A DNA stretch of 64,000 bases from positions 22,280-86,279 of the forward strand of contig CAYFPJ010000003.1 of NCBI GenBank assembly GCA_964344965.1, written 5' to 3'. Below the pieces are notes generated by a model. That model worked only from the letters and a program-made list of their open reading frames with translations, did no database searches and was not told where the DNA came from. Source of the DNA: an uncultured Gammaproteobacteria bacterium. Its GTDB lineage: Bacteria; Patescibacteriota; Patescibacteriia; Magasanikbacterales; UBA922. Positions within the stretch are counted from its first letter, which is position 1, and each line of letters starts with the position of its first letter. Shown here piece after piece: positions 6,760 to 43,100 of this stretch. The position numbers and the translations under genes are program-made.

Positions 6760-6779
6760 TTGGTTTTATGCGAGTACGA

Positions 6780-6899
6780 CGCAACCCACCCTCTGTCTCC
6801 CTCCCTTAAAAAGGGAGGGAGGACGAGATAAGTAGTCTGTACTATTTAGTACGTTCCTCCTCCCTTCAAAAAGGGAGGAGGACAGGAGGTGGGTTGCGT
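6780..6899. repeat. composite palindromic element, family B copy 1 (outer stem cgcaacccacc/ggtgggttgcg enclosing two CCTCCC...GGGAGG hairpins)
   Basis: Seen directly. Its reverse complement is near-identical to 36580-36696. Confidence 0.7.
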
Positions 6900-6920
6900 T
6901 GTTTCCACTACTAAAGTTTT

Positions 6921-8033: not shown

Positions 8034-8621
8034 ATGAAAAATAAAAAGCCGTTGTTAATTGTAGTTGATTACCAAAACGATTTTGTCGACCAAAGAAGTA
8101 AGATTGCAAAAAAATTAGGAATTGACTTGAGCGCATGTAGAAAAATATTTCCTGTAATACAAAAGTTAATTGAAAAATGGCATATAGATAAACATCCTGT
8201 TTTATTTTTACTAAATGACTACAGTAGTAATAATTACAAAGGAGAATATAAAAAACACAGATCAAAAACTGCTTATGGCGATACTGCTATCGAAGGAACA
8301 TGGGGGCATGAATTGTACAATATTAAAATGAGTAAAAATGATAAGTCTATTGTAAAAAATTTTCCAAACGGATTTGCAAATACAGATCTTGAAGAAGTTA
8401 TAAAAAAAATAAAACCAACATCTATATATTTTGTTGGCGTAAATACTGATGTATGTGTCTTTCATACCGCTTTTCATGCTTCCTTTTTAGGTTATAAAAT
8501 ATTTGTAGTAGAAGATGGTACCGCAACATCAAATAACAAAATGAAAAATATATTTTTGGATTATTTACATGACATTGCAGGAGTACATATTATAAAAAGC
8601 AAACTCATTCTTAAAAAATAA
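8034..8621 (+). CDS. isochorismatase-family cysteine hydrolase (nicotinamidase-like)
   Basis: LLIVVDYQNDF motif and ~190 aa size. Confidence 0.55.
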   Translation: MKNKKPLLIVVDYQNDFVDQRSKIAKKLGIDLSACRKIFPVIQKLIEKWHIDKHPVLFLLNDYSSNNYKGEYKKHRSKTAYGDTAIEGTWGHELYNIKMSKNDKSIVKNFPNGFANTDLEEVIKKIKPTSIYFVGVNTDVCVFHTAFHASFLGYKIFVVEDGTATSNNKMKNIFLDYLHDIAGVHIIKSKLILKK

Positions 8622-8626
8622 TTTTT

Positions 8627-9433
8627 ATGGCACGAGAAGATGTAAGAATTCTGTATGCTTCTGAGGCTGCAGACCAGTGGGGCCCAAAAACAATGGAGCA
8701 TGCTTCTGGAATTTGGGGGCGTGATCCAATGCTTAAATATTTGAGAGATGATATTATACAAGAAGGTGACAGAGTCGTAGATTTTGGCTGCGGTCAAGGA
8801 TACCCAACAATGCGGGTTGCAGAAATGGTTGGAGATTCTGGTAGGATTGTTGGTGTTGACTATAGTAGAAGTCAATTGGGCTTAGGTGATGAACAGTCCC
8901 CACTTCACGAAAGATATGGTTCGCCAGATAATGTTGAATTTAGACAAGGTGATGTGAAAAGAGCCCCACTTACTTCCGACTCTATGGATAAAGGTGTTTC
9001 TTTTATGGTCCTCCATAATTTAGAAATATCTGAAGTCAGGCTAGTATTCAAAGAAATGGCAAGAGTTCTAAAAGATGGAGGAAAAGCGGTATTTTTAACA
9101 ATGCATCCGGAAGTGCTTGATTCTGAGCCTTGGGATTTAGATTTTTGGAAATATGACGATGAGGATATAGAGACATACAGAGCCGCGGATGATAAAGAAG
9201 GTGTAAAAGTAAGAGGTACTGTTCAAAATGTATCTGGTGGAGAAAAAAAAGTAACCATGTATAACCACACACGTCAAAATATTATGGAAGCAATACAAGA
9301 TGCCCAACTTAATTTAATTTCGGAGATACCTCTTTTTGTTGATGAAAAAACCGCGAAAGAAAAGTTTGGTTCAGAGTCAACAAAAAAAGTTCCAAATAAA
9401 CCAGTTTTTTGGATGATTACTGTCGAGAAATAA
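8627..9433 (+). CDS. class I SAM-dependent methyltransferase
   Basis: Motif I VVDFGCGQGYPT. Confidence 0.65.
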   Translation: MAREDVRILYASEAADQWGPKTMEHASGIWGRDPMLKYLRDDIIQEGDRVVDFGCGQGYPTMRVAEMVGDSGRIVGVDYSRSQLGLGDEQSPLHERYGSPDNVEFRQGDVKRAPLTSDSMDKGVSFMVLHNLEISEVRLVFKEMARVLKDGGKAVFLTMHPEVLDSEPWDLDFWKYDDEDIETYRAADDKEGVKVRGTVQNVSGGEKKVTMYNHTRQNIMEAIQDAQLNLISEIPLFVDEKTAKEKFGSESTKKVPNKPVFWMITVEK

Positions 9434-9457: not shown

Positions 9458-9532
9458 AAAAAACACCACCCTTCCTCCTAATTTGCATTCAAATATCTTT
9501 GGATGCAAATCTGTGAGTGGGTGGTGTTTTTC
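9458..9532. terminator. long nested hairpin (acaccaccc...gggtggtgt with an inner ttgcat...atgcaa) followed by a T-run; terminator for the methyltransferase gene
   Basis: Inverted repeats seen directly. Confidence 0.45.
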
Positions 9533-9580
9533 CCCTCTTCCCACCACCCGAGTCTGGCTCGGGGGTGGTTGGGGGGGGTT

Positions 9581-9736
9581 TTATTTTTTTCGACACCTCC
9601 TTTTGTCGTACCACACAGCGTAACGGAGTTGGGCGTACCTGACGCCCTCCTCCGCCACGAACAGGACGAGGCCGACAGCCGTTATGGCTGCGGCCACGGA
9701 GAAAGCTGCTGCCTTCTTCGCGACGCTATCGCTCAT
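9581..9736 (-). CDS. GC-rich mini-gene encoding a 51-aa single-TM peptide (MSDSVAKKAAAFSVAAAITAVGLVLFVAEEGVRYAQLRYAVWYDKRRCRKK); the ORF track omitted it because it is under 60 aa
   Basis: Translated by hand. Strong SD (AGGAAGAGGA) 6 nt upstream, a candidate -35/-10 upstream, and a GC hairpin plus T-run downstream. Local GC is far above the genome background. Confidence 0.3.
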   Translation of the reverse strand: MSDSVAKKAAAFSVAAAITAVGLVLFVAEEGVRYAQLRYAVWYDKRRCRKK

Positions 9737-9820
9737 TCCTCTTCCTGGGCTGGTTGGTTCGCTGACTTCGTGCCAGCGACATTGGTGCAGTATATCATTT
9801 GTGCATTTTTTTCAACAGTA

Positions 9821-9862: not shown

Positions 9863-10531
9863 TTATTTGGTAGCAATCGGATTGAAGTCAGTATCTTTAT
9901 CAAAGTAATCTATTTCTTCTTTTTTCTTTAGCCAATTGACTACACGATAAGTCACTGGCAGCAAGACTACTTCTAGAAGGATTTTGAAAACATAGTTGGT
10001 GATCCAGATAGTCCAGAGGAGACTCCATGGCAAGATACCAGCAAAAGCAATCAATAAGAATACAGTAGTATCAAAGAACTGTCCGACAAAAGTAGACCCA
10101 ATGGCACGAAACCAGAATCTTTTACCATCCATCTTTACTTTCAGCTTAGCAAGAACGTAGCTGTTCATGAATTCACCAAGTAAGTAAGCAGCGAGACTAC
10201 CGAGGACTATACGTGGCACTACTCCGAGAATGGCATTGTAAGAATCTTGTAATCCCCAGATTGGATCTGCTGGCAGCATGCCAACTAGCCAGAAGGTGAG
10301 GACCATCAAGAGATTCATCGCAAATCCGATCCAGATGACACGGCGAGTACGAGCATAGCCATAGACTTCGGTCAAAATATCTCCAAAGATGTAGGCAAGA
10401 GGAAAGAGGATCAGTCCACCATCGAAGCTCATCCCATTCAAAATGGCGATTTTTGTGCTGGCTATGTTAGAAAGCACTAGAATTACAGCAAATGCTGCTG
10501 TGAGGAGGTCAAGATGTTTGAAACGGGGCAT
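9863..10531 (-). CDS. queuosine-precursor transporter, YhhQ/DUF165 family
   Basis: Polytopic membrane protein of ~220 aa with FPLAYIFGDILTEVYGY, characteristic of the YhhQ family. Located next to queuosine genes. Confidence 0.6.
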   Translation of the reverse strand: MPRFKHLDLLTAAFAVILVLSNIASTKIAILNGMSFDGGLILFPLAYIFGDILTEVYGYARTRRVIWIGFAMNLLMVLTFWLVGMLPADPIWGLQDSYNAILGVVPRIVLGSLAAYLLGEFMNSYVLAKLKVKMDGKRFWFRAIGSTFVGQFFDTTVFLLIAFAGILPWSLLWTIWITNYVFKILLEVVLLPVTYRVVNWLKKKEEIDYFDKDTDFNPIATK

Positions 10532-10615
10532 AGGGATTAAGTATTAATATTGTGTAGAGCAGTATTTGTCCTGCAGGACAAATATCATATTTGGTATTTT
10601 TACTTTAAAAAGTTG

Positions 10616-10948
10616 TTATCTAGAAGATCTCTGCGCTACTTTTGTTGCTATGTCTGCCACAACTGTTCTAAAAATCCCATGAAGCATACTTTCACCATCT
10701 TCGTTGAGCAATATCGGCCGCATAAATTCAATCTCCAATTTTTTCATTATAGATGGATCCCCTTTAGTTTGTATTAAGGCTGTTACTGCTGTATCAATTA
10801 TTTCATTAAAAACTTCATTTCCTACTTCCTTATTAGGTTTAGAACCGTGTACTACTGTAACATCATTTTGAAAACGATCTTTAAGTTCACTAAACTTGGT
10901 TGATACTTCTTGTACTACTCTTTTTTCATGTCCAAATTCTCTGTCCAT
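10616..10948 (-). CDS. hypothetical protein (~110 aa). The ORF-track extension to 10990 reads into repeat A, so the likely start is MDREF
   Basis: The first 14 codons of the tracked ORF are encoded by the repeat (atgcaagcatcgagg...). No motif recognised. Confidence 0.35.
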   Translation of the reverse strand: MDREFGHEKRVVQEVSTKFSELKDRFQNDVTVVHGSKPNKEVGNEVFNEIIDTAVTALIQTKGDPSIMKKLEIEFMRPILLNEDGESMLHGIFRTVVADIATKVAQRSSR

Positions 10949-10955
10949 AATTTTA

Positions 10956-11102
10956 AATCTTAAAGTGGTTTTATTCCTCGATGCTTGCATCGAAAAGGTG
11001 AAGGCTGATATTGGCCGAAATAAATATTTACTGCCAATACCCCGTAGCTCTGCTACGGGGATGGCCAGATTAAATCTTACTTAAACCAAATTTACTTTTA
11101 TT
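10956..11102. repeat. 145-bp dispersed repeat, family A copy 1 (diverged copy)
   Basis: About 85-90% identical to copies at 11502-11646 and 38941-39085. The CCCCGYAGC..GCTRCGGGG hairpin is kept by compensatory substitutions. Confidence 0.8.
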
Positions 11103-11201
11103 CTTAAATTATTGAAATTATACCATGATTGACAAGTTTTGTAAATCTACATTAAAATATTAAAGTCCGATATAATTTTGTCTTTTTACCATCTGTATAA
11201 T

Positions 11202-11483
11202 TTATGTTTTAATATACTTTAAATCTTCTTCACTTATGCGAAAGCCTCCATTCTCTCCAATTCTTTTCTTAATATAATTTTCATAATCTTCATCTGTGAG
11301 TGCTTGTTTAGCAATTTTTTGAGCTTCATTTGCTATTACCATCATTGATTTTTCTTGAGCTGCTCTTGCAAAGGATCTGCCAAAGAGTCCTATATCAAGT
11401 CTGATCTGTGTTTCTCTATCTTTATAAAAATCAATACGTCTTTGGAGTTTTTGTTTTTCTTCGTCGTTTCTTGTTTTTTTCAT
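11202..11483 (-). CDS. hypothetical small protein (93 aa), charged/helical
   Basis: ORF only. Flanked on both sides by family A repeats. Confidence 0.35.
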   Translation of the reverse strand: MKKTRNDEEKQKLQRRIDFYKDRETQIRLDIGLFGRSFARAAQEKSMMVIANEAQKIAKQALTDEDYENYIKKRIGENGGFRISEEDLKYIKT

Positions 11484-11501
11484 TTTTGTATTTATTTTTT
11501 T

Positions 11502-11646
11502 AATCTTTAAGCGGTTTTATTCCTCGATGCTTGCATCGAAAAAGTGAAAACTAACATTGGTTGAAATAAGATTTTCTGCCAATACCCCGCAGCTTGCTGC
11601 GGGGATGGCCCGATGAAGTCTTACTTAAACCAAATTTACTTTTATT
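11502..11646. repeat. 145-bp dispersed repeat, family A copy 2
   Basis: Near-identical to 38941-39085. It overlaps the last 20 codons of the 473-aa ORF. Confidence 0.85.
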
Positions 11647-12972
11647 TTTTGTCGCACAATCGTCCAATTCAATCTTTAATATCTCTGCTAAGCCGTCGAT
11701 GCATGACTCAATGGTATCACATCTATGTGAAGGTGCTCCGCGTAATGTCCAGCCAAAATCTATTAATCCTTCTTCTAGTTCATATCTTTTATTATCAACG
11801 ACAGTTATATTTTCTTTTTCACCTACATAGCTTAACATTACCTCCTCCCCTGCCCTCAAAGCATCAAAAGCTCTCCTTTCGGTCAGGTCGAGTTTGAAAG
11901 GAGAATCATCAAAAATTTTCTCTCTCGCGCTTTGTTTTTGCTCATCACTAATCACGAAATTGTTTTTTATGATGTCTTCTGGAGAGACACGATCTCCTTT
12001 TTTTATTTTCCCATCGTGTTCAATTTCTAATTTGTAAAAATGAGAATCTGCTGTCTGTAGATAGACTGGCATGTCTTGCCTATTGGCGTAAACTGTCAAG
12101 TTGTGTGCGTGGGAAAGGACTTCTTCTCTGTCCTTGCCATACGTATCTGTTGCAATGGTAGTCCAAGTTGGATTTAAAAGATCTTCGTGCACATATATAC
12201 CAGCAATACTTGGATCAGATATGATAATTTCGTTGTAATCACCGTCTTGTTTTTGTGTGATTGCTGTTGATATTTCTTTTTCAATATCTTCGGGATCTAG
12301 GTATCCTGACATTCGTGCTGTTCCTCTGGCACTTGCACCTGCATCATGTCTATTTGCATTTTTTACTACACCGCCATTTAGTAAAACCCCCATTTTATAA
12401 AATGTTTTATCTTTGGTTTCCGGGTCATCTCTGACACTGCTAGTTGAAATTTCAGGGGCAAGTCCAATAAGTACAGAGAGCCGTTCTTTCCACGTTGCTT
12501 CTTTTAACATAACAGTATTTGCTCTTGTTTTAGTAGCTGCAAAGCCATGAGTCAAAAATATATTATATTTTTTGATTACTTCTTTTACATCGTATGTCTT
12601 ATGACTCTTTTCACGCTTTTCTGTGGTTAGAAGTTCAAGTTCAGACGCCATGACGTCTGTTCTATCCATTCCAGATGATACTCTTGTTACTTCATTAAAT
12701 TCTGTCTCTAATTCTAACAAGGTTTTTCTCTCTCTTTCAAGATCTTTAGATAGTTTGCGTATCTTAAAATAGTTTAATATTTCACCTAAAATTTTTATTT
12801 TTAATAGAGTAATCCTTTGCTCAAGATTTTCAATGTCCCTTCGTATTTGTTCAGAAAGTTTTTTGTCTCTTTCGTCTTTAGTATCTTTCCCTGTTCTCCC
12901 CATGACAGATTCCATACCATTTTTTAATTCTCTAGACGATATATGTGTATCTTGTGTAAGATTTTTATCCAT
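11551..12972 (-). CDS. hypothetical protein (473 aa): N-terminal coiled coil plus a globular C-terminal domain. Its C-terminal 20 aa are encoded by repeat A
   Basis: Long ORF immediately downstream of tgt (4-bp spacer), probably co-transcribed. No motif recognised. Confidence 0.45.
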   Translation of the reverse strand: MDKNLTQDTHISSRELKNGMESVMGRTGKDTKDERDKKLSEQIRRDIENLEQRITLLKIKILGEILNYFKIRKLSKDLERERKTLLELETEFNEVTRVSSGMDRTDVMASELELLTTEKREKSHKTYDVKEVIKKYNIFLTHGFAATKTRANTVMLKEATWKERLSVLIGLAPEISTSSVRDDPETKDKTFYKMGVLLNGGVVKNANRHDAGASARGTARMSGYLDPEDIEKEISTAITQKQDGDYNEIIISDPSIAGIYVHEDLLNPTWTTIATDTYGKDREEVLSHAHNLTVYANRQDMPVYLQTADSHFYKLEIEHDGKIKKGDRVSPEDIIKNNFVISDEQKQSAREKIFDDSPFKLDLTERRAFDALRAGEEVMLSYVGEKENITVVDNKRYELEEGLIDFGWTLRGAPSHRCDTIESCIDGLAEILKIELDDCATKNKSKFGLSKTSSGHPRSKLRGIGRKSYFNQC

Positions 12973-12978
12973 ATTATT

Positions 12979-14325
12979 TTATTGTGTCCACTCTTTCTTC
13001 ATTTCTAAAAATTTATTTTCTCGAATTTTTTCTCGGACCCTTTTCATCAAGTTTAACATAAAATGTAGATTGTGTATTGTGGCTAGTCTATAGGCGAGCA
13101 TTTCTCCTGCTTTGAACAGGTGATGGAGGTATTGACGAGAATGGTTTTGGCAAGTGAAGCAGGTGCAAGTTGGGTCGATTGGGTTGGGATCATTGCGGTG
13201 TTTTGTGTTGCGGATGTTGAGGGTATATTTTTTTTCTTTCAACGAAGAACCCCCCTTTATCCCCCCTACAAGGGGGGAAATATAGAGAGTACCATTTCTG
13301 GCGATGCGGGTGGGGGAGACGCAGTCGAACATGTCGACGCCGCGTTCGACAACTTCGAAGAGGTCTAGCGGAGAGTGTCCTACTCCCATAGTGTAGTGAG
13401 GTTTTTCTTTGGGAATTATAGGATTGACCCAGTCAAGGATTTGTTTGGTTGCCTCCATATTGTAACCAACACTTTCTCCACCAATGGCAATGCCATCAAA
13501 ATCAAGTGATGAAATGAATTTTGCGCTTTCTTCACGGAGATGTTTGTGATTGGCGCCTTGGATTATGCCAAAGAGAAATTTTTTATGAGTTGCAGACCCA
13601 AGAGACCCCTCCCGCACTCGCTTCGCTCGTGTCGACCTCCCCTCAGAGGGGAGGTTAACTCGCTGTAGTTTGGTATGTTCGATAAGACAGCGGCGAGCCC
13701 AGTCGTGAGTTCTTTCCATTGCTTTTTTTGTATATTTTTCATTAGCATCATCTGGGGTACATTCGTCAAAAGCCATGATGATGTCTGCTCCAATCTTGTG
13801 CTGTATATTTATTGCTTCTTCTGGAGTGAAGCGGTGTGTCGATCCGTCTATGTGGGAACGGAATGTGACACCGTCGTTGTCTATTTTGACTAGTTTTGTT
13901 TGATTGTTGGTTTGTGTTGGTGGGGTGTTACTCGATTCCAGCGAAGACCCCTCCCGCACTCGTTTCGCTCGTGTCGACCTCCCCTTATAGGGGGGGTTAT
14001 TTACTTGCTTTCTTACTTTTTCCTTACCAAGAGAGAACACCTGAAAGCCTCCTGAATCTGTTAGGACCGGCCGATCCCAGTTCATGAATTTATGGATTCC
14101 TCCAGAATCGGCAATTAGATTTTCTCCGGGTCGAAGATGAAGATGGTAAGTGTTGGCAAGAATGATTTGAGCGTCAATATTTTTCAAATCTTCGTTATCA
14201 AGAGATTTGACGGTGGCTTGGGTTCCGACTGGCATGAAGATCGGTGTTTCAACATCACCATGATCAGTATGGAGTATTCCTGTTCTTGCTAGACAGTTTT
14301 TTTCTTGATGTGTTATTTCAAACAT
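12979..14325 (-). CDS. tgt: queuine tRNA-ribosyltransferase, with three in-frame repeat-derived insertions (448 aa against ~370-385 typical)
   Basis: Tgt blocks FMPVGTQATVK, LTDSGGFQVFSL, IMAFDEC, GIAIGG, MFDCV and zinc site CxC..C are all present. Confidence 0.85.
   Translation of the reverse strand: MFEITHQEKNCLARTGILHTDHGDVETPIFMPVGTQATVKSLDNEDLKNIDAQIILANTYHLHLRPGENLIADSGGIHKFMNWDRPVLTDSGGFQVFSLGKEKVRKQVNNPPYKGRSTRAKRVREGSSLESSNTPPTQTNNQTKLVKIDNDGVTFRSHIDGSTHRFTPEEAINIQHKIGADIIMAFDECTPDDANEKYTKKAMERTHDWARRCLIEHTKLQRVNLPSEGRSTRAKRVREGSLGSATHKKFLFGIIQGANHKHLREESAKFISSLDFDGIAIGGESVGYNMEATKQILDWVNPIIPKEKPHYTMGVGHSPLDLFEVVERGVDMFDCVSPTRIARNGTLYISPLVGGIKGGSSLKEKKYTLNIRNTKHRNDPNPIDPTCTCFTCQNHSRQYLHHLFKAGEMLAYRLATIHNLHFMLNLMKRVREKIRENKFLEMKKEWTQ
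13246..13282. repeat. GC hairpin micro-repeat (CCCCCC-tacaa-GGGGGG) inserted in frame in tgt (encodes PLVGGIKGGSS)
   Basis: Same hairpin type as 49689-49709 and 37897-37917. Absent from the Tgt alignment recalled from memory. Confidence 0.6.
13604..13660. repeat. GC-rich palindromic element (agacccctcccgcactcg..gtcgacctcccct-cag-aggggagg) in frame in tgt (encodes SEGRSTRAKRVREGS)
   Basis: ~93% identical to 13944-14000. Related to the intergenic copies at 37979-38010 and 49789-49820. Confidence 0.7.
13944..14000. repeat. GC-rich palindromic element, second in-frame copy in tgt (encodes KGRSTRAKRVREGS)
   Basis: Direct sequence comparison with 13604-13660. Confidence 0.7.
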
Positions 14326-19639: not shown

Positions 19640-20250
19640 CAATTTAAAATTTAAAGACCCCCCCGTGGGATTAAATCCCCAGCTTTTAGGCTGATCTTTC
19701 AAGTCCAGGCATCCTGTGATAGTATGTCCGTATATGAAATACGAAAGAAAATCCTCCCATACCATATACGATCATAAGTACCACATATGCTGGATTACCA
19801 AGTATCGCTACCAGGTACTAAAAGGTCAGGTTGCCATTAGATTACGTGAATTAATCAAACAAGTTTGTAAGCAACAAAGCGTTGAGATTATCGAGGGTCA
19901 CGTCCGCCCAGAACACGTCCACCTATTCGTCTCAGTACCTCCACACATCTCCATCAGCAAGCTGATGCAACTAGTCAAAGGACGAACAGGCAGAAAGATG
20001 CTCCAGGAATTTGAAGAGCTTCGCAAGCGATACTATGGCGGACACCTTTGGACAAGAGGATTCTACTCTGCCACTTCAGGTAATGTAACCGACGAAACCA
20101 TCCAACAATACGTACATAGCCAAGACAAGAAAGAAATGAAAGATGACGAAACATTCCAAGTAACAGAGTAATCGTACTTTAGTGTCATTCATGACAAATT
20201 CCCACAGATTCTTTCGGCTTTAGCCGATAGTGGTTCAAATTAAAATTAAA
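19640..20250 (+). mobile_element. IS200/IS605-family insertion sequence (tnpA only); boundaries approximate
   Basis: Y1/HUH transposase gene, with subterminal hairpin-capable sequences on both sides. Confidence 0.6.
19716..20171 (+). CDS. tnpA: IS200-type transposase TnpA (Y1 HUH); the likely true start is 19734 (MKYERK)
   Basis: HICWITKYRY, HVHLFVSVPP (HUH) and the catalytic YY...G region. ~140 aa. Confidence 0.85.
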   Translation: MIVCPYMKYERKSSHTIYDHKYHICWITKYRYQVLKGQVAIRLRELIKQVCKQQSVEIIEGHVRPEHVHLFVSVPPHISISKLMQLVKGRTGRKMLQEFEELRKRYYGGHLWTRGFYSATSGNVTDETIQQYVHSQDKKEMKDDETFQVTE

Positions 20251-20266
20251 AATTCCCAATTTTTTT

Positions 20267-21175
20267 ATGCTGTGGTTCTTCATAGCCCTATTAGGATATT
20301 TTTTTCTCGCTCTGACATTTATCCTCGACAAGCTAATCCTCACCAAGTCACTTGGTAAGCCGGTGGTCTATACTTTTTATTCCACCATTTTCATGTTTGG
20401 TGCTCTTTTAGCTCTACCTTTTGGAGTAGAATTTCTCAGTGGGATGGACTGGTGGTGGGCGATTGTTTCTGGGGTTGGGTTTGGTCTTGGTCTTTGGACT
20501 TTATTCAAGGCCGTGAAAATTGGGGAGGCCTCACATATCAATCCTTTTAATGGTGCTGTAGTGACAATTGTCACCTATCTTTTTTCCTCTCATTTTGTGG
20601 GAGAATCTCTCAGCAGCTTACAAATTTCTGGAATTGTTATTTTGATTTTTGCTTCACTCTTGCTGTCATTTGAAAAATCCAAAAAGCATAGTGGATTTCA
20701 TATTGGTTTTGTTTGGGCTATTATTTCGGGAATATTTTTTGCCATGTCCCACGTTAGTGCTAAGTATCTCTATGAACTATATCCATTCCTCACTGGTTTT
20801 GTATGGACGCGTGCTACTACTGGTCTAGTAGGACTTTTTGTTTTATTTTTTCCTTCGGTCCGGGCCACTTTGAAAAAGAAAGAACAAACCAAGAGATCAG
20901 AAAAAAAGAGAAAGAAAACTATCACTCTTGTTGTCAGCACAAAATTATTGGCAGTATTAGCAGTGATCTTGATTCAGTTTGCTGCTGCCATCGGTTCAGT
21001 TTCTCTTGTTATTGCTCTTAGCGGACTGCAGTACGCTCTCATGTTTGTCATGATTTACTTACTTACCAAGTTTGCTCCCAAAGTTTTCAAAGAATACTTT
21101 ACTAAACGTGAATTGACAGTGCAGTGGGTGGCAATTTTTCTTGTAGTTGTTGGTTCGGCGATGTTTGTATTGTAG
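20267..21175 (+). CDS. polytopic membrane protein (DMT/EamA-like, 10 TM) (putative)
   Basis: Hydrophobicity pattern only. Confidence 0.35.
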   Translation: MLWFFIALLGYFFLALTFILDKLILTKSLGKPVVYTFYSTIFMFGALLALPFGVEFLSGMDWWWAIVSGVGFGLGLWTLFKAVKIGEASHINPFNGAVVTIVTYLFSSHFVGESLSSLQISGIVILIFASLLLSFEKSKKHSGFHIGFVWAIISGIFFAMSHVSAKYLYELYPFLTGFVWTRATTGLVGLFVLFFPSVRATLKKKEQTKRSEKKRKKTITLVVSTKLLAVLAVILIQFAAAIGSVSLVIALSGLQYALMFVMIYLLTKFAPKVFKEYFTKRELTVQWVAIFLVVVGSAMFVL

Positions 21176-21203
21176 GAATTATGAATCAGGAATTATGAAT
21201 TAT
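21176..21203. repeat. left inverted repeat (ggaattatgaatcaggaattatgaatta) of the pair bracketing the four-helix-bundle gene
   Basis: It is the reverse complement of 21574-21601. A third related copy lies at 35112-35139. Confidence 0.6.
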
Positions 21204-21578
21204 TATGGAGGAAAAATTAAAAGTTTTACAGACCTACATGCTTGGAAGGAGGGTCATAGACTTGTTCTTATGATTTATGAAAGTGTTAAGTTTTTTCCAA
21301 AAGAAGAATTGTTTGGTCTCGTTAGTCAAATGAAAAGAAGTTCAGTTTCTGTGACATCAAATATTTCTGAGGGATTTAGTAGAAGTTCTTATAAAGATAA
21401 ATTAAGGTTTTACTTTATGTCACTTTCTTCGATTAGTGAACTGCAAAATCAAATTTTGATAGCTCGAGATGTGGGATATATCACTACAAAAAAATTTCAA
21501 GAATTAGCAACACAAAGTATAAAAGTACACAAAATAACTAATGGCTTGATAAAGAAAACAAAAACATATATATCATAA
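21195..21578 (+). CDS. four-helix-bundle protein (TIGR02436-like, the 23S rRNA intervening-sequence protein family)
   Basis: FTDLHAWKEGHRLVLMIYE...SQMKRSSVSVTSNISEGFSR is the family signature. AGGA RBS upstream of the ATG at 21195. Confidence 0.65.
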   Translation: MNYYGGKIKSFTDLHAWKEGHRLVLMIYESVKFFPKEELFGLVSQMKRSSVSVTSNISEGFSRSSYKDKLRFYFMSLSSISELQNQILIARDVGYITTKKFQELATQSIKVHKITNGLIKKTKTYIS

Positions 21579-26529: not shown

Positions 26530-29500
26530 ATGAAAAAAAGATACTTTGAGAGGGTGAAAAAAGCGATTAGCAGCTTTCTGGTATTTTCGATGTTGCTTCT
26601 TACTGCTGGTCCAGCAGTAGTAAGTGCGGCCACTAGTTTGGTGACCTATACTTTGCCAGATGTGACAATCGATCTCAGTGAAGGTGATAGCGATGTCACT
26701 ATACCTCTGACTGTCGAAGGATTTGAAGATATTTTGGGCGGACAATTATCTATAAATTACGACAGCACAGTTTTGGATTTTTCAGAAAATACTGATGAAG
26801 CAGTGCTAGGCCTAACTATCACAGATGGTGATGGTGTCTTGACTTTGGTCTGGGGTGATTTGGTGAATTTGGAAACTTCCACTATCGTTGATGGTGGTGT
26901 ACTTACCAATCTCGTCTTTGATATTCTTGGTGAAGATGGTGATAGTACTGAATTGGGAATAGTAGATCCACTTGCTTCTGTCGCAACACAACCTTTTCCA
27001 GATGCTCCAGAAATAATTTTACCAAGTGCTATTGCTACTGCTTCTGTAGACGGATCAGTTGTTTTGGAAGATAGTACTCTTGGTGCAGATGATATAGAGC
27101 AAGTTTCTTTGACATTTACCAACTTGAATGACAACGACGAAATTGAGCTCGGCGACACTCTTCAGTTTACAATGCAGTTTATGGTAGAGGATGGGCAAGG
27201 AGGATTTGTATACATCCCTGCTGAATTGCCTTTTCCAGATGGGATCGGTCTTAAGCTAACAAATTTCACTGAAGGTGTGACCAAGGTGTTGGATATGTCT
27301 TCCTCTCTTACTTTGGATTCTGACGTGTTTTCATATCTACTTGGATTAGATGATGATGGCTCTGACCTTACAATTGGTGAATATCGTGTTAGTCTCACTG
27401 GTACCCAGTCTGGTAATTTTCTTGCAGGTACGTTTAATTTGATCATCGATGAACCCCCTTATCCAGTAAGTAGTTTTCCAGAAGATGGTTCAATTGATGT
27501 CTTGATTGATAGCGAGCTGTATATTGATTTTTCTGAAGCAGTTGACACTTCTACTGTAGATTCAGACTCAGTTCAATTGCGACCGTTCTCAGATACCAAT
27601 GGTGATGATAAGGTTTCTGTAAGTTTTGAGTTTGAAGAAGGTGATACTAGAGTTGTTTTGGGATTAGGCGAAGTTTTGGATTATGATACCCAATACTACT
27701 TTTTTGTCGGTAGTACTGTAGAAGATCTCAAAGGTAATAGTGTGGGGACAGAAAATGCTTGGTATGGGTCTGATAAAGAAGATCATGAGTTCACTACCAT
27801 AAGTGAGCCAGATGTGATTGCTCCTGTAGGCACTGTTAGTTATTCTACAGAAGACGCCACCAATGATGATGTGGTGGCTACACTTAGCCTAGATGACCCA
27901 GAAGCAATAGTGACCAATAACAATGGATTATTCACATACACATTCACAGAAAACGGCTCCTTCACATTTGAGTTTGAAGACTTGGCTGGAAACAGTGCCA
28001 CTGCTGTTGCTGAAGTCAATAATATTGATAAAGTTGCTCCAGTTATTACTTTGAACGGGGAATCTGAGATCACTCTTGTTTTGGGGGCTACATATGTAGA
28101 GGAGGGGGCCACAGCTGCGGATGATGTCTTTTTGGGAGAGATGGAGATAGACATTGGTGGTGATGTGGTTGATACAGACATAATTGGAACTTATATTGTT
28201 ACATACAATACTTCTGATAATGCAGGAAATAATGCTGAAGAAGTGACTAGAACAGTTAATGTGGTAGAAGCGTTTCCAATCGGAGACCTTGAGCTTCTTT
28301 CTCCTGATCAAGTTTATCCTGGAGAAGATGTGATTGTGCAGACAGCCTATGATTTTTCAGGACAGGGTAATTATACCGTTTTCGATGACGGATCGTTCAT
28401 TGTGAAGGTGTTTGGTCAGGATGAATTTGGGGAGTATACCGAAGAGATATCAGCTGTTGTGTCTAACTATAGTAATCCCATAAATTTTGATTTTATAGGA
28501 AAACAATTTGTCGTTTCTGAAGATCTCTTTGATCCTGGAATGTACAAAGTATCTCTTATCAAAATCGATGGTCAAGTAGAAAACGACGCTGTATATTTTG
28601 AAGTTTTAGAACCACTCCCAATTGGTGAACTAGAGCTCTTGTCTTCTGCAGAGGTATTTTATGGTGAAGATATCGAACTTCTTACTTCTTATGATTTCAC
28701 AGAACAAGGAAATTATTCACCTGCTCATGACGGATCTTTCACTATTGAGGTATTCGGTCAAGATGAATTTGATGAGTACACAGAAGAGGTATTGATTGAT
28801 ATTTTTGTAAATGGTGGTCCAGGAGAAAGAGCGTTTACTGTTACTGAAGACCTCTTCGACCCTGGCATGTACAAAGTTTCTTTGGTTCAGAATGTTACTA
28901 ACATAGAAAACGACTCTGTATATTTTGAAGTTTTGGAGCCACTGCCTATCGGTGATTTGGAAATGCTATCTCCTGCCGAGTTGGAATATGGTGAAGACGT
29001 CGAACTTCTTACTTCTTATGACTTTGCTCAGCAAGGAAATTATTCACCTTCCCACGATGGCTCGTTTACCCTCAAGGTATTCGGTCAAGATGGTACTGGT
29101 GAATACACAGAAGAAGTGTCGGTTGATATATTCATAAATGGTGGTGCGGGAGAAAAAGGATTTACAGTAACAGAAGATCTATTTGATCCTGGTATGTACA
29201 AAGTTTCTCTTATTCAAATCAGTGGTCAGGTAGAAAATGATGCTGTGTATTTTGAAGTTGTTGACGACATTGCTCCTATTGGAACTATTACTTACTCTAC
29301 TACTGAGCTTACCAATCAAGATGTGGTAGCAACTCTTAGTGCAAATGAAGATATTATTATCACAAACAATGAGGGTTCGGATACATACACATTCACAGAA
29401 AATGATAATTTTGTATTCAAATTTGAAGATCTAGCTGGAAACACTGCTACGGCAATTGCTGAGGTGAATAATATTGATAAAGTTGCCCCAGTAATTGTAT

Positions 29501-36541: not shown

Positions 36542-36572
36542 AAAAACTCCTGCTGATTGTGGGAGTTTTTTT
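36542..36572 (+). terminator. terminator ACTCC-tgctgattgtg-GGAGT plus T-run; a near-identical copy lies at 37856-37887
   Basis: Seen directly. Confidence 0.55.
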
Positions 36573-36579
36573 ACTACCA

Positions 36580-36696
36580 CGCAACCCACCTCCTGTCCTC
36601 CTCCCTTAAAAAAGGAGGAGGAACTTGCTGAATAGTAAATACTTATTAGAACGTCCTCCCTCCCTAATAAGGGAGGGAGACAGAGGGTGGGTTGCG
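36580..36696. repeat. composite palindromic element, family B copy 2 (inverted orientation relative to copy 1)
   Basis: cgcaacccacc...ggtgggttgcg outer stem with CCTCCTCCC/GGAGGAGG and CCTCCCTCCC/GGGAGGGAG inner hairpins. Confidence 0.7.
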
Positions 36697-36800
36697 TGAT
36701 AGCATCAAAATCCCTTGCAACACCCTCTTCTCCATGTGGACAACTTTCTTGACAGTACTATCCTATAGGTCTAAACTAAAAATAGATTATATTAATCAAT

Positions 36801-38077: not shown

Positions 38078-38941
38078 ATGAATCATGACCTCTTCAAACC
38101 AACTCATCTCAAAGAACTCTGTCAAAAATACGATCTCACGCCATCGAAAAAATATGGACAAAACTACTTGATCTCTGACGCTCCGATCAAAAAAATGATT
38201 GAGGCAGCTGACGTAAAAAAGACCGATATTATAGTAGAGATCGGTCCAGGTTTTGGAGTGCTTACTTTTGCTCTAGCAGAAGGAGCGGGTAAAGTTTTCA
38301 CATTTGAGATAGAAAGGAAACTAGAAGAGTATTGGGATGATGTTTTGGGAGATGGAGACAAGGAGATAAGTAGAGATAATAATATAGAGATAATTTGGGG
38401 CAATGCTTTGAAAAGTCTTAAATCTTATGTCTTAAATCTTAAGTCTGGATACAAAGTGATTGCAAACTTGCCATACCAGATTACTTCCAATGCTTTGAGG
38501 ATAATTTTGGAGGCAGAAAATAAGCCAGAATCTGTGACTGTGATGGTCCAGAAGGAGGTGGCAGAAAGAATTGTGGCGAAGCCAGGGGATATGAGCCTAC
38601 TTGCTGTTTCAGTGCAATATTATGGTGGACCAAAGATTGTTTGTAAGGTTCCGAGTGGATCATTTTGGCCTAGTCCGAAAGTGGATTCAGCGGTATTGTA
38701 TATAGACACCTCAACACCTAAACACTTTAACACTTTTTCTGATGATGATTTTTTTAAAGTTGTGCGGGCGGGATTTGCAAATAAGCGCAAACAACTGTGG
38801 CGAAATATTAGTGATGGATTGAAGATTGATAGGGGAGAGGTGAAAGAAGTCTTGAAGAATGTCGTTGGTAATGAAAAAGCACGAGCGCAGGAATTGAGTG
38901 TAGAGGAATGGAGAGAGGTGGTATCGACACTAAATAGTTAA
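38078..38941 (+). CDS. rsmA: 16S rRNA (adenine1518/1519-N6)-dimethyltransferase
   Basis: YGQNYLISDAPIKKMIEAA, SAM-binding VEIGPGFGVLT, and NLPYQITS. Confidence 0.85.
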   Translation: MNHDLFKPTHLKELCQKYDLTPSKKYGQNYLISDAPIKKMIEAADVKKTDIIVEIGPGFGVLTFALAEGAGKVFTFEIERKLEEYWDDVLGDGDKEISRDNNIEIIWGNALKSLKSYVLNLKSGYKVIANLPYQITSNALRIILEAENKPESVTVMVQKEVAERIVAKPGDMSLLAVSVQYYGGPKIVCKVPSGSFWPSPKVDSAVLYIDTSTPKHFNTFSDDDFFKVVRAGFANKRKQLWRNISDGLKIDRGEVKEVLKNVVGNEKARAQELSVEEWREVVSTLNS

Positions 38942-39085
38942 ATCTTTAAGCGGTTTTATTCCTCGATGCTTGCATCGAAAAAGTGAAAACTAACATTGGT
39001 TGAAATAAGATTTTCTGCCAATACCCCGCAGCTTGCTGCGGGGATGGCCCGATGAAGTCTTACTTAAACCAAATTTACTTTTATT
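38941..39085. repeat. 145-bp dispersed repeat, family A copy 3 (abuts the rsmA stop codon)
   Basis: Near-identical to 11502-11646. Confidence 0.85.
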
Positions 39086-39092
39086 GTACGAA

Positions 39093-39165
39093 ATTACGAA
39101 CAGTATGAAATGTACGAACAAGTATTTCGCAACTTTCGTACTGTTCGTAATTTCGTACATTTCAG
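39093..39165. repeat. long perfect hairpin (gtacgaaattacgaacagta ... tactgttcgtaatttcgtac), followed by a small terminator hairpin at 39180-39207
   Basis: Seen directly. Confidence 0.5.
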
Positions 39166-40128: not shown

Positions 40129-43100
40129 ATGTTCTGGGACAAAGATAGGAAAAGAAAATTTTTTACACTAACTGCTCTTACTATTTTTGTTAGTTTCAAT
40201 GTTTTTGTTTTCACTATTTTTCCGTCCAGTGTTGTACATGCTGCTGCAGCTGCTCCGGTAGCAGAAGTGGAGAGTGCCCCTCAAAAAGAAAAAGCTATAG
40301 AAGATAAAATTATCGAAGGAGTGTTGTCGGCTCTTATGGGTTCTCTAGTTAATTTTACCTCACACTTCATGAGGACTCTTGCTTATGATACTGCAGTCTA
40401 TATTGCGTCTGGTGGTAAAGGTGAAGGTTCTCTTATTTTTGAAAAACCATTTGATGAGTATTTGCTCGGTGTGACTGGTGATTCGGCTGGAGCAGCTATC
40501 GATGCTCTTGGTGAGGAGTGGGGGCTAGATCTCTGTGCTCCTCCAAGTCTTGATCTCCAGGCTGGTTTGAAAGTAGGTCTTAGTGAAATATATGATGCTA
40601 CTGATCTAGAGATTGGTAATTATACAGATCAGGCCCAATCTTATGCCGAAGGTGTGAGTTTCGGGGATGGACCTACTGGACGTCCTCAATCTAGCTGTAC
40701 TTTCAACGAGTTGAAAGGGAATTGGTTTGATGAAGATGGAAACTTGAAAGCACCAGAAGTGAATATCGACATGGCTGCAGACTTTGCAGCAGATGTAGAT
40801 GTCACTGAGACAGATTTTGGCTACATGCTTGGAGCCATAGAAAAAGTAGACCGTCTAGAAGCTCACCAGGAAGAGTCTGCATCTTTGGAGAGATTGGCTG
40901 GCGAAGGATTTAAGGCAGTGACTGACCTGATAAGTGGGGAGATTAAGACTCCACCAACAATTGTAGAAGAAGAAGCTACTGCTCTTACTGGCAAGCACCA
41001 GGGTGAGCAAAATGCCGAACAGATTGCTGGCATGTATGCTTCTGAACTGTGGCAGATAATTCCTATGTCTGCTTCAGTATTTCTCAATACTCTTACTTCT
41101 GAATTATTGAATAGAGTGTTTACCAAAGGTCTTGTGCCTGCTGGTCCACCACCAGGATCTTTTGATTTCTATGGAGTGTCTGCTTTGCTTGGCAAAAGAA
41201 AGGCAGCTGAAAGAGCCTTTAGTTTTCTGACTGTCAATAATCCTACCAAGAGTTTGGAAAATTATGATATAACAGCCTTCTATGCCTCATGCCCCAATCC
41301 CGATAATCCTGGTATTAACGAGTGTGTGATCAATAGTGATTTTAAGACAATTATCGACATTGCTTCCAATGGGCGACCTTTGACAATTTATCAGGCTATT
41401 TTTGAAGAAGAGTTAATTGATGAAAACACCCAGCTCATCTCTCCTCGTAGGACTTCTGACAATGAGAGTCCTGACTGTCGCAACAAAGGATTTTGTCATT
41501 CCAATGTCCAAAAGCTAAGAAAGGCGAGAGTATTGCCACTAGGTTTTGAAATTGCCACTCTTCGTTCAGATCCAGACAATCCTTGGACCATTGGTGAAGT
41601 GGTAAAAGGTTTTGAAGACTGTACCGTTGAAAATGGAGAAGTAATACTTGATAGCAACAAACCATTTTGTCATCTCATAGATCCAAACTGGGTTATCCGT
41701 GCTCCAGAGGCTCGCTGTGAAGCGTTTGTTGACAATCCTATCTTGCAAGTAGAGAATTCTCCAAAGAGAAAAAATGAATGTGCCGACATATCTACTTGTA
41801 TCACCGAAGATCCTAATGGCTCTTGTTCGAATGATGATTATTTTGCATATTGTACCAAGGAGTCCAATGTCTGGCATTTGCCGGGCGATAGTTGTCCTGC
41901 AGAGTATGTAACTTGTCAAAACTTTTTCAACGAGACAACTAAAGAAAACGTATCGTATCTCTCTCGGACTCTAGACTACGGTAGTTGTGATGTCGATTCA
42001 GTGGGCTGTAGTGCTTATAGCGTAGAAAAGATCAATGGAGAGTGGGTCGGTACTGCTAGTGATGATTACCAAATAGGGTACAAATCTATCGGCAGAAACC
42101 AGGTGATAAATTTCAATGAAAAAATCACAGCTGGAGGCACCAAACAAAATTCTAGTTGTTCTCCAGAAAATGATGGTTGTACACTATTTTATTCTGCCGA
42201 AAGAATAGTCAATACTCTTAGTTTTGCCAAAGACGTGGATGGTAATTATATAAAAGATCAAAATGATCAGCTCTACCTCAAAAAAGCTCCATATTATTTG
42301 GGATGTTATGACACAGACCTAGATACACCAGAGATAGAATGGCCAACCACCTTACAGCAAGTCACAAATAATATTGACGGTGACTCAGAGTGTTCCAATT
42401 TTGCCCAGGTGTGTGTCGAAGAAGAGATCGGCTGTGATCTATATACACCGATCAATGGTGGTGCTGGTGTGCCTGGCGTAGTTGGAAATAATATTTGTCA
42501 TGAAAATTGTGTTGGATATGAGACTTTCCAGCAAGAAGCCACCAACTTTGAATCTTCCGATTACCCACTCTATTTCATCCCCAAAAATGGTGACCAGTGC
42601 AACCTGGCGTATGAAGGTTGTGATGAATTTACCAATATTGACGCTGTCTCTGCCGGCGGAGAAGGTCTAGAGTACTACACATATATAAAGAGATGTGAGA
42701 AGCCAGAAGGAGAAAACAGCAATGTCTACTATTCTTGGGAAGGTTCTGGTACTGAAGGATATGTGTTGAAAGTTCACAATTTGGCTCGTGTCGGTACTGA
42801 AGATGCTAGCTACATCTCATCTCTTGGTATTGACCTAGAAATAAAAAATACTTTCACGGCTGATTCACCAGCATATATTGATGATACAGTAGAGATTCTA
42901 GAAGAAAACTATGCCAAATGTAATGAAGACTTGTACAACAATCTAGTGAACAATATTCCTGGCGTAGATCATGCTGATGAAGACTGTCGAGCTCTATATG
43001 GGACCGATGGTAGTATTTATTATAGAATTTTGGCAGACACTGTCACTGTCTCAGAGGCTTGTCACCCACTTAGAAAATCTGAGTCTAGACTTGAAGTCGA

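Follow-up and report, generated by a model that had tools for sequence, protein, structure and literature searches.

The analysed stretch of DNA (the window) was 64,000 nt long and carried on its minus strand a tgt gene encoding queuine tRNA-ribosyltransferase (14325..12979, Pfam TGT E=2e-146), followed by three open reading frames and a yhhQ/COG1738 (Vut_1) gene for a queuosine-precursor transporter (9863..10531, Pfam Vut_1 E=4e-54). The three frames, all on the minus strand, were ORF473 (12972..11551), ORF93 (11202..11483) and ORF110 (10616..10948). This order, with ORFs of 473, 93 and ~110 aa, had been described in the initial annotation and was recovered together with the positions of the ORFs and repeats, except that tgt and ORF473 were separated by 6 nt and not by 4 bp. 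The tgt gene formed the upstream border of the block and yhhQ the downstream border, with queA located 2 kb away. A palindrome with a 10-bp stem was found between ORF110 and yhhQ (10562..10585, no strand given). Codon usage showed that all three ORFs score as coding in the annotated frames, with +0.26, +0.30 and +0.30 bits per codon for ORF473, ORF93 and ORF110, respectively, and negative values for every other frame. The GC3 of the block was 0.18-0.27, which is at the low end for the window but not a clear outlier. Searches of ORF473, ORF93 and ORF110 against Pfam, NCBIfam, PADLOC and PHROGs gave no match for any of them, in agreement with the earlier remark that the three proteins have no recognisable motifs. 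In addition, alignment of tgt with its relatives showed three lineage-specific in-frame insertions, and GC-rich repeats were observed in frame within tgt on the same contig.

The closest genomes found were MAGs of Ca. Magasanikbacteria and Parcubacteria. In three of these (L011, L012 and L014) yhhQ followed tgt directly with a gap of 70, 93 and 22 nt, respectively, and orthologue identity was 79% for tgt (aligned) and 79% for queA. The yhhQ gene had 86% identity with its orthologue in L011, which is located immediately after tgt in that genome. Since only 22-94 nt separate tgt and yhhQ in the closest genomes, the 2.45-kb block is a lineage-specific insertion between tgt and yhhQ in a Magasanikbacteria-like Patescibacteria genome, although insertion and loss in relatives are not fully separable, as protein identity to the nearest relatives is only ~80%. 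The neighbourhood comparison suggested in the initial annotation pointed the same way, as none of 80 tgt loci held a relative of ORF473, and the presence of the block is therefore variable. No integrase or transposase was found at the borders of the block. An 8-nt direct repeat, ACACAATA, was present at both borders and was rejected as an insertion mark, since 11% of shuffles would be expected to yield such a repeat by chance.

Homology searches showed that ORF473 and ORF93 are two halves of one gene (hereafter gene X) interrupted by a copy of a ~153-nt repeat, c2 (11497-11649, minus strand), so that the three-gene unit proposed earlier was reduced to a cut gene and ORF110. ORF93 aligned at the very C-terminal end of homologues 551-640 aa in length (BLASTP: P0002 E=3e-17, P0004 E=9e-8), and tblastn located ORF473-like and ORF93-like segments within single genes in seven loci (L001-L003 and L007-L010). 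ORF93 produced no BLAST match with L004/L005 (P0003), yet the C-terminus of P0003 aligned in alignment A2. Homologues matched the window in two pieces lying in different frames, and deletion of 154 nt (11496-11649) produced a single open frame of 538 aa. AF2 modelling of the fused protein gave a pLDDT of 93-98 for the ORF93 portion, which represents the helical C-terminal region cut off from gene X, and placed the c2 split point in a loop predicted to connect two C-terminal helices. The native N-terminal part (11650..12972, minus strand) was delimited by family search, alignments, AF2 and codon score as residues 1-441 of ORF473, where K/N residues ahead of the tail fall in an ambiguous A-run at the repeat boundary that permits up to 444. 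The last 29 residues of ORF473 had no counterpart in homologues and are supplied by the repeat, as is the stop codon (11551..11649, minus strand, inside c2). This repeat-encoded tail had a codon score of -0.16 and an identical sequence in another repeat copy, c3, and it is not native coding sequence. Overall, the window holds the sole split copy of gene X that was seen, and the restored product of ~538 aa is shorter than the family median of 607 aa.

A chimeric contig was considered as the source of this arrangement, in which the MAG would be misjoined across a multi-copy repeat and ORF473 and ORF93 would not be true neighbours. A second, independent assembly of this organism (L006, a contig in ENA) does end inside c2. 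However, the sequence right after c2 is the exact missing C-terminus of the same family with few residues unaccounted for, a chimeric join would not restore the correct continuation of gene X, and P0152 (ORF110) is recorded on the same 92-kb contig, all of which makes an assembly artefact extremely improbable. An intron or a translational bypass was rejected for c2 in view of its size, the differing frames and the intervening stop codons.

By sequence, the fused product can be assigned to a widespread, uncharacterised Patescibacteria family (P0002-P0151, for example 'hypothetical protein KKG22_00495' of a Patescibacteria group bacterium), with which ORF473 plus ORF93 aligned end to end at 20-38% identity. 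The family comprised 339 clusters at 50% identity, with no match in Pfam, NCBIfam, PADLOC or PHROG. The N-terminal region of the protein contains a coiled coil, the central domain is of alpha/beta type and carries invariant His, Asp and Asn-Glu, and the C-terminal region is a helical bundle in which one Arg is invariant. The invariant residues H142, G201, D210, N247, E248 and the C-terminal Arg were all present in gene X, the last being R74 of ORF93 or R518 in fused numbering. Structure prediction, which had been recommended in the initial annotation, gave confident AlphaFold models (AF2 pLDDT of 81.7 and 91.9) with no Foldseek neighbour in the PDB. The order of the H-G / S-T-S / N-E motifs is one that we take to be ADP-ribosyltransferase-like; such a fold for the central domain was rejected, as it was suggested by motif order only and Foldseek gave no support. 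Our best guess, held with low confidence, is that the product may be a cytoplasmic enzyme that oligomerises by way of its coiled coil and acts with a His/Asp/Glu site.

Queuosine-related accessory function had been proposed for the block from its linkage to tgt, queA and the transporter. YhhQ/COG1738 is a transporter of preQ0/preQ1 (PMC5372724), and the genes flanking the block are orthologues of the tgt-yhhQ salvage pair for queuosine precursors, adjacent in relatives, whereas no relation of the inserted block to this pathway was detected. The reading of three separate genes as an accessory module co-transcribed with tgt and yhhQ would account for the short gap between tgt and ORF473, the single strand shared by all ORFs and the nearby queA; two of the other gene X loci also adjoin genes of tRNA-modification type (L001 with TsaD, L007 with a deaminase). 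However, ORF93 is the C-terminus of the family of ORF473 and tgt directly precedes yhhQ in relatives. No relative of gene X was found when the 80 tgt loci were inspected with flanks of up to 8 kb, and none of six independent gene X loci had tgt, queA or yhhQ nearby. The neighbours of gene X in these six loci all differed, with none shared, and included a cation ATPase with translin, FBPase, HhH-GPD and glutamine synthetase, and the homologues were solitary. Gene X is not specific to queuosine, and an accessory module of three genes is highly improbable.

The other earlier proposal, arrival in the operon of a small mobile cargo module for toxin-immunity or anti-phage defence, agrees with the lineage-specific insertion, the GC3 below that of the neighbouring genes, the small orphan ORF, the repeats within the block and a gene X neighbourhood that differs in every genome examined. 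On the other hand, PADLOC returned no match for the three ORFs and only weak, coiled-coil-type matches of family members to SMC-like models (LmuB), which are regarded as noise, and no relatives were found in phage, plasmid or IMG/VR collections. The borders, as described above, carried neither a mobility gene nor a direct repeat beyond chance expectation, and gene X homologues had no conserved small partner gene. A toxin, immunity or defence cargo therefore found no backing in these searches and is considered improbable.

The repeat that interrupts gene X, the 'family A' repeat of the initial annotation, was ~153 nt in length (153-155 nt) and occurred three times in the window, always on the minus strand and in unrelated contexts. 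Copy c1 (10951-11105) lies between a promoter-like site and the start codon of ORF110, c2 lies inside gene X and has two strong hairpins, and c3 (38936-39088) is antisense, between the stop codon of rsmA and its terminator. ORF93 is flanked by c1 and c2, as the bracketing by two repeats described earlier implied. Copies c2 and c3 were 99% identical while c1 was 87-88% identical to both, and the repeats are far beyond chance. A covariance model (R1) scored the three copies at 164-190 bits with no other match on that strand, the only further signal being palindromic reverse-strand echoes of the same copies. The fold z-score of the repeat was -5.8, its 9-bp hairpin showed one compensatory change (C-G to U-A), and all six frames contained stop codons.

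No further copy of the repeat and no matching RNA family was found in the searches performed. Rfam 15 gave no match to any copy at the gathering threshold nor at E up to 10, and R1, applied to 415 kb of sequence from relatives and from gene X loci, returned the three copies of the window only. Searches with exact cores in GTDB representative genomes, JGI metagenomes (with two cores) and IMG/VR showed no further copies; a single exact-core match, L091, was dismissed as a chance 21-mer. A six-frame search with repeat peptides, aimed at ORFs that enter other copies, gave no scored match and was uninformative, as even P0001 was not returned.

The longest frame of ORF110 starts at 10990, inside c1, and the first ATG outside the repeat (10948) gives the product of 110 aa. 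ORF110 retrieved only itself among 5.8e9 clusters and had no match in related loci. Just upstream of c1 was a sigma-70-like promoter (11117..11145, minus strand; TTTACA-17-TATAAT with TG), an 11/12 match and the best of the region on that strand, though as a consensus match only, with overall site counts not above chance. Derivation of ORF110 from a longer ORF upstream, of which it would be a fragment, was rejected, as the 96-nt spacer ahead of c1 has stop codons in every frame. Judged by sequence, ORF110 is a putative orphan gene with its own promoter-like site, and c1 may have landed between this promoter and the start codon, where it would make up most of the ORF110 leader.

These positions raise the alternative that the repeat is a functional structured RNA (leader or small RNA) and that gene X is deliberately two-part, the repeat giving the first part its stop and the second part a regulated restart, and likewise regulating ORF110. 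The strong predicted fold, with one compensatory and three G-U-type changes, the near-consensus promoter directly upstream of c1, and the ends of c1 and c2, both 5-14 nt ahead of an ATG, would suit such a role, as would a split at a predicted inter-helix loop that leaves pieces with open frames and coding-like codon usage. However, pair-breaking substitutions on this strand were as many as pair-keeping ones, and c3, antisense between rsmA and the terminator, precedes no gene on its own strand. The 99% identity of c2 and c3 fits recent copying better than long-term function, and translation of the first 29 or more repeat codons yields junk, for which the codon score is negative. In addition to the lack of an Rfam match and of any copy at the loci of relatives, the 150 listed homologues were all single polypeptides or fragments and none carried the repeat. 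A functional RNA is accordingly given a low probability.

The three copies on one contig instead point to a small non-autonomous mobile element, by which a hairpin-rich non-coding repeat would have landed at least three times in the contig, in one case (c3) just after rsmA. Prokaryotic MITEs and related small intragenic repeats (Correia, ERIC, BOX, RUP and Rickettsia palindromic elements) have been reviewed (PMC10969869). The repeat of the window resembles them in being ~150 nt long, non-coding, multi-copy and rich in secondary structure, in occurring both in intergenic and intragenic positions, in changing a gene product (fused foreign tail, split ORF) and in giving a neighbouring gene a new 5' leader. 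It falls within the size and coding limits of MITEs (<~500 bp, non-coding), and its three dispersed similar copies in 64 kb are also as in MITEs. Terminal inverted repeats were weak and not convincing: an 18-nt pair with 72% complementarity was found near the ends of c1 only, and in the long inverted repeat of c2 the 5' end pairs with the middle of the element and not with the other end. Nor was a target-site duplication readable, because the flanks are A/T-rich; the boundaries, flanked by A/T runs, were ambiguous by 1-3 nt and no shared duplication could be read from the three copies. No empty site was seen either. Unlike MITEs and small intragenic repeats, it is known from three copies only, all in one contig. 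Finally, the host frame continues through Rickettsia palindromic elements; the present repeat, which carries stop codons in every one of its six frames, truncates its host gene.

No related autonomous IS was seen as a parent, another difference from MITEs, as the sole transposase gene seen (Pfam Y1_Tnp, 19734-20171) has unrelated flanks. PATEs (non-autonomous and derived from IS200/IS605) and REP/REPIN elements are mobilised by Y1 transposases. Like PATEs and REP, the repeat is hairpin-based without clear terminal inverted repeats or target duplications, and the Y1 transposase gene is present 8 kb away. However, the hairpins and ends beside the Y1_Tnp gene had no similarity to the repeat (BLAST), and the three copies shared no common 5' tetra- or pentanucleotide (AAGA, AAAA, TACA); an IS200/IS605-type PATE or REP-like element was rejected on these hairpins and 5' flanks. 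A diversity-generating retroelement was considered in view of a bAvd-like ORF (21147-21578) and of a repeat overlapping the 3' end of a gene, and was likewise rejected, as the differences between c1 and c2 were not adenine-specific; no reverse transcriptase was seen in the examined parts of the window.

With a mobile repeat of this kind, c2 would have inserted into gene X at the stretch encoding the loop between two C-terminal helices. The upstream frame would then enter c2, gain 29 foreign residues past the ambiguous boundary and stop, giving ORF473, and the final 93 codons would persist as the separate ORF93, whose start is an internal Met codon located 14 nt beyond c2. The insertion was probably recent, given the 99% identity of c2 and c3 and the still open frames of both halves. 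Gene X is probably inactivated or crippled, as its invariant Arg is now on a separate piece, although both halves keep intact frames and gene-like codon usage and a two-piece protein may still work. A stronger version, in which the central domain is a new enzyme fold widespread in Patescibacteria and the protein still works here as two chains because the repeat cut the gene in a loop, is rather unlikely; the 93-aa piece would in that case be re-expressed from the downstream edge of the repeat.

Overall, the best explanation, and a likely one, is a lineage-specific segment inside the tgt-yhhQ pair that consists of a gene X split by the repeat and the orphan ORF110. The whole event is an ordinary small-repeat gene disruption, and the gene X finding has no bearing on queuosine biology. 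For annotation, the ORFs of 473 and 93 aa become one interrupted gene, with the last 29 residues of the 473-aa product derived from the repeat. For the evolution of CPR (Candidate Phyla Radiation) genomes, the locus presents a reduced Patescibacteria genome that is actively reshaped by small structured repeats. For protein discovery, gene X leads to a sizeable Patescibacteria-specific family, which is a reasonable structural and biochemical target since its predicted structure is confident and has no known relative.

The window belongs to a Patescibacteria (CPR) genome, and the closest relatives of its tgt gene were found in Candidatus Magasanikbacteria and Parcubacteria MAGs. On the minus strand, tgt (14325..12979) was followed after a spacer of 6 nt by ORF473 (12972..11551), ORF93 (11483..11202), ORF110 (10948..10616) and yhhQ/Vut_1 (10531..9863), with queA located 2 kb beyond yhhQ on the opposite strand. 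The layout of the initial annotation was confirmed, as two copies (c1 and c2) of a ~153-nt repeat flanked ORF93 and none of the three ORFs had a match in Pfam, NCBIfam, PADLOC or PHROGs. The ORF473 protein was recorded solely in NCBI and ENA assemblies.

A word-indexed search with ORF473 produced just three relatives with lengths of 551-586 aa, and HMMER, run exhaustively against 1.84 billion representatives, gave 339 clusters of relatives (E up to 1e-3) with a median length of 607 aa among the matches listed. ORF93 aligned to the extreme C-terminus of the longer homologues; its '...EDYENYIKKRIGENGGFRISEEDLKYIKT' paired with '...DEYTSYIDRRVGKDGGFKMTEEDLQYIST' in the homologue P0002 (BLASTP, E=3e-17), and it also matched L007, the locus of the closest homologue (tblastn, E=2e-20). 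At the loci that BLAST could match (L001-L003 and L007-L010), ORF473-like and ORF93-like segments were inside a single gene; in the window the two occupy different frames. The 3' end of ORF473 falls within c2, and the identical stretch occurs again in the third copy, c3. The last 29 residues ('SKFGLSKTSSGHPRSKLRGIGRKSYFNQC') had no counterpart in the aligned homologues and a negative codon-usage score, and the native parts of the gene scored like known genes of the window. Deletion in silico of 154 nt, comprising the repeat as bounded by copy similarity and one base from an ambiguous A-run, produced one open frame of 538 aa ('...LDDCATINTKMKKTRNDEEKQ...'). The reading as three genes is thus not supported: ORF473 and ORF93 are one gene, here termed gene X. 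Mis-assembly at c2 was also considered; an independent ENA assembly ends within c2, and assemblers break at multi-copy repeats. It is unlikely because exactly the missing end of this family stands beyond c2.

The three repeat copies, c1 (10951-11105), c2 (11497-11649) and c3 (38936-39088), were in the same orientation, with 99% identity between c2 and c3 and 87-88% between c1 and either. The repeat was non-coding (each of the six frames carried stops), and its fold was far stronger than that of shuffled sequence (z -5.8), consisting of a long bulged stem capped by a 9-bp G+C hairpin and a second, 10-bp hairpin. One difference between c1 and c2/c3 was compensatory (C-G to U-A, in the first hairpin); the remaining changes were disruptive as often as conservative on both strands. 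No Rfam family was matched, and searching GTDB representatives, JGI metagenomes, IMG/VR and also 415 kb of related loci yielded no additional copy. The terminal inverted repeats were weak, and the flanks were A/T-rich, where target duplications were unreadable. Insertion contexts were unrelated to one another: c2 in the interior of gene X, c1 between a near-consensus promoter-like TTTACA-17-TATAAT and the ORF110 start codon, and c3 antisense in the stretch from the rsmA stop codon to the terminator. By analogy with the features of MITE, RPE and ERIC elements (reviewed in PMC10969869), it is best read as a small non-autonomous repeat of that kind, whose mobility we infer. Directly next to c3, on the upstream side of the rsmA terminator, lies an inverted repeat at 39085-39159 whose 34-nt arms are 88% complementary and enclose a 7-nt loop. 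The window also has a lone IS200-like gene for a Y1 transposase (Pfam Y1_Tnp; 19734-20171, plus strand) with hairpins on either side; its flanks and ends did not resemble the repeat.

Synteny was compared across 80 loci with tgt relatives. Identities to the window were 79% (tgt, aligned columns), 86% (yhhQ) and 79% (queA) for L011 (Ca. Magasanikbacteria), 73% (tgt, aligned) and 71% (yhhQ) for L012, and 58% (tgt) and 74% (yhhQ) by tblastn for L014. In these three closest loci tgt was directly followed by yhhQ, with gaps of 70, 93 and 22 nt, respectively, and in L011 the neighbours of tgt on its far side, which are a peptidase C39 gene, a sigma factor gene and two more ORFs, stood in the window order. 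Relatives of ORF473, ORF93 or ORF110 were found within 8 kb of tgt at none of the 80 loci. Given this near-adjacency and absence, the 2.45-kb stretch separating tgt from yhhQ is most probably an acquisition of this lineage, in support of the insertion initially proposed. The borders of the block had no mobility gene or significant repeat; an 8-mer (ACACAATA) at both borders (10548-10555 and 12980-12987, minus strand) gives no evidence of a target duplication, with a chance expectation of ~11% of shuffles. ORF110 had gene-like codon usage, a promoter-like site upstream and no relatives in the word-indexed search; it is best described as an orphan gene with a leader now made of c1.

Other features were observed in the window. 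The tgt gene has three in-frame insertions (34, 21 and 10 aa) absent in its closest relatives, at 13603-13657, 13945-13999 and about 13255-13290 on the minus strand. Two of the three are copies, at 93% identity, of a palindromic, G+C-rich repeat of ~55 nt that encodes '..GRSTRAKRVREGS..' and the 32-nt core of which occurs only at those two sites window-wide; in being in-frame they resemble Rickettsia palindromic elements. A second repeat family, an unrelated G+C-rich ~130-nt palindromic element with GGGAGG/CCTCCC arms, has two mutually inverted copies, upstream of queA and downstream of ndk (6776-6902 and 36566-36710). Between queA and yhhQ, isochorismatase-family and SAM-methyltransferase genes (8034-9433) may represent a second lineage-specific insertion, since the queA-yhhQ separation in L011 is only ~860 nt. 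The stretch 9480-9800, situated between that methyltransferase gene and the terminator of yhhQ, is G+C-rich (GC 0.50 vs ~0.38 around) and contains poly-C/poly-G hairpins, but none of its ORFs was convincing; it may represent either a further repeat or a structured RNA. An ORF at 21147-21578 (plus strand) matched the 23S_rRNA_IVP/bAvd-like four-helix bundle, bAvd being the accessory protein of diversity-generating retroelements; no reverse transcriptase was noticed close to it. A set of three 327-nt repeats in tandem, 70-77% identical, and a giant ORF of 3174 aa occurred in the stretches 28479-29264 and 40129-49653.

AlphaFold2 modelling of the fused gene X protein from a 41-sequence alignment (pLDDT 81.7) showed a long, low-confidence N-terminal helix, a central alpha/beta domain (modelled separately, pLDDT 91.9 and pTM 0.87) and a helical bundle at the C-terminus. 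In the ORF93 portion the pLDDT was 93-98. Foldseek with the fused and central-domain models found no PDB neighbour below E=0.1 and one marginal BFVD match (an uncharacterised Tupanvirus protein), and profile searches of PDB sequences produced coiled-coil noise only. Invariant residues were H142, G201, D210, N247, E248 and an Arg now on ORF93 (R74), which suggests an enzyme and a truncated 473-aa product that would be defective by itself. Function in two pieces is possible because the cut lies in what the fused model predicts to be a loop (residues 444-450). Six homologue loci had six unrelated neighbourhoods (TsaD and DnaE; cation ATPase and translin; deaminase and glutamine synthetase; HhH-GPD; FBPase; a short contig) with no conserved partner gene, and tgt, queA and yhhQ were absent from all six. 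Together with the 80 tgt loci, this argues against the queuosine link first suggested. A toxin or defence role was likewise disfavoured by the lack of PADLOC matches and conserved partners and of relatives in phage, plasmid and IMG/VR collections. The only domain fusions seen in the family were P0148, with an added DUF4116 repeat, and P0059 (2129 aa, representative search), in which two XRE-type HTH domains (1454-1586) immediately precede the central domain (1601-1851).

Overall, the event is of an ordinary kind, in which a small structured repeat has disrupted one gene and entered the leader of another, here within a lineage-specific insertion of a CPR genome. Both families, that of the repeat and that of the gene X protein, are undescribed, yet of known kinds. 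The gene X family is the part most worth following up, since, with no fold neighbour found, it has a confident model and is widespread in Patescibacteria.
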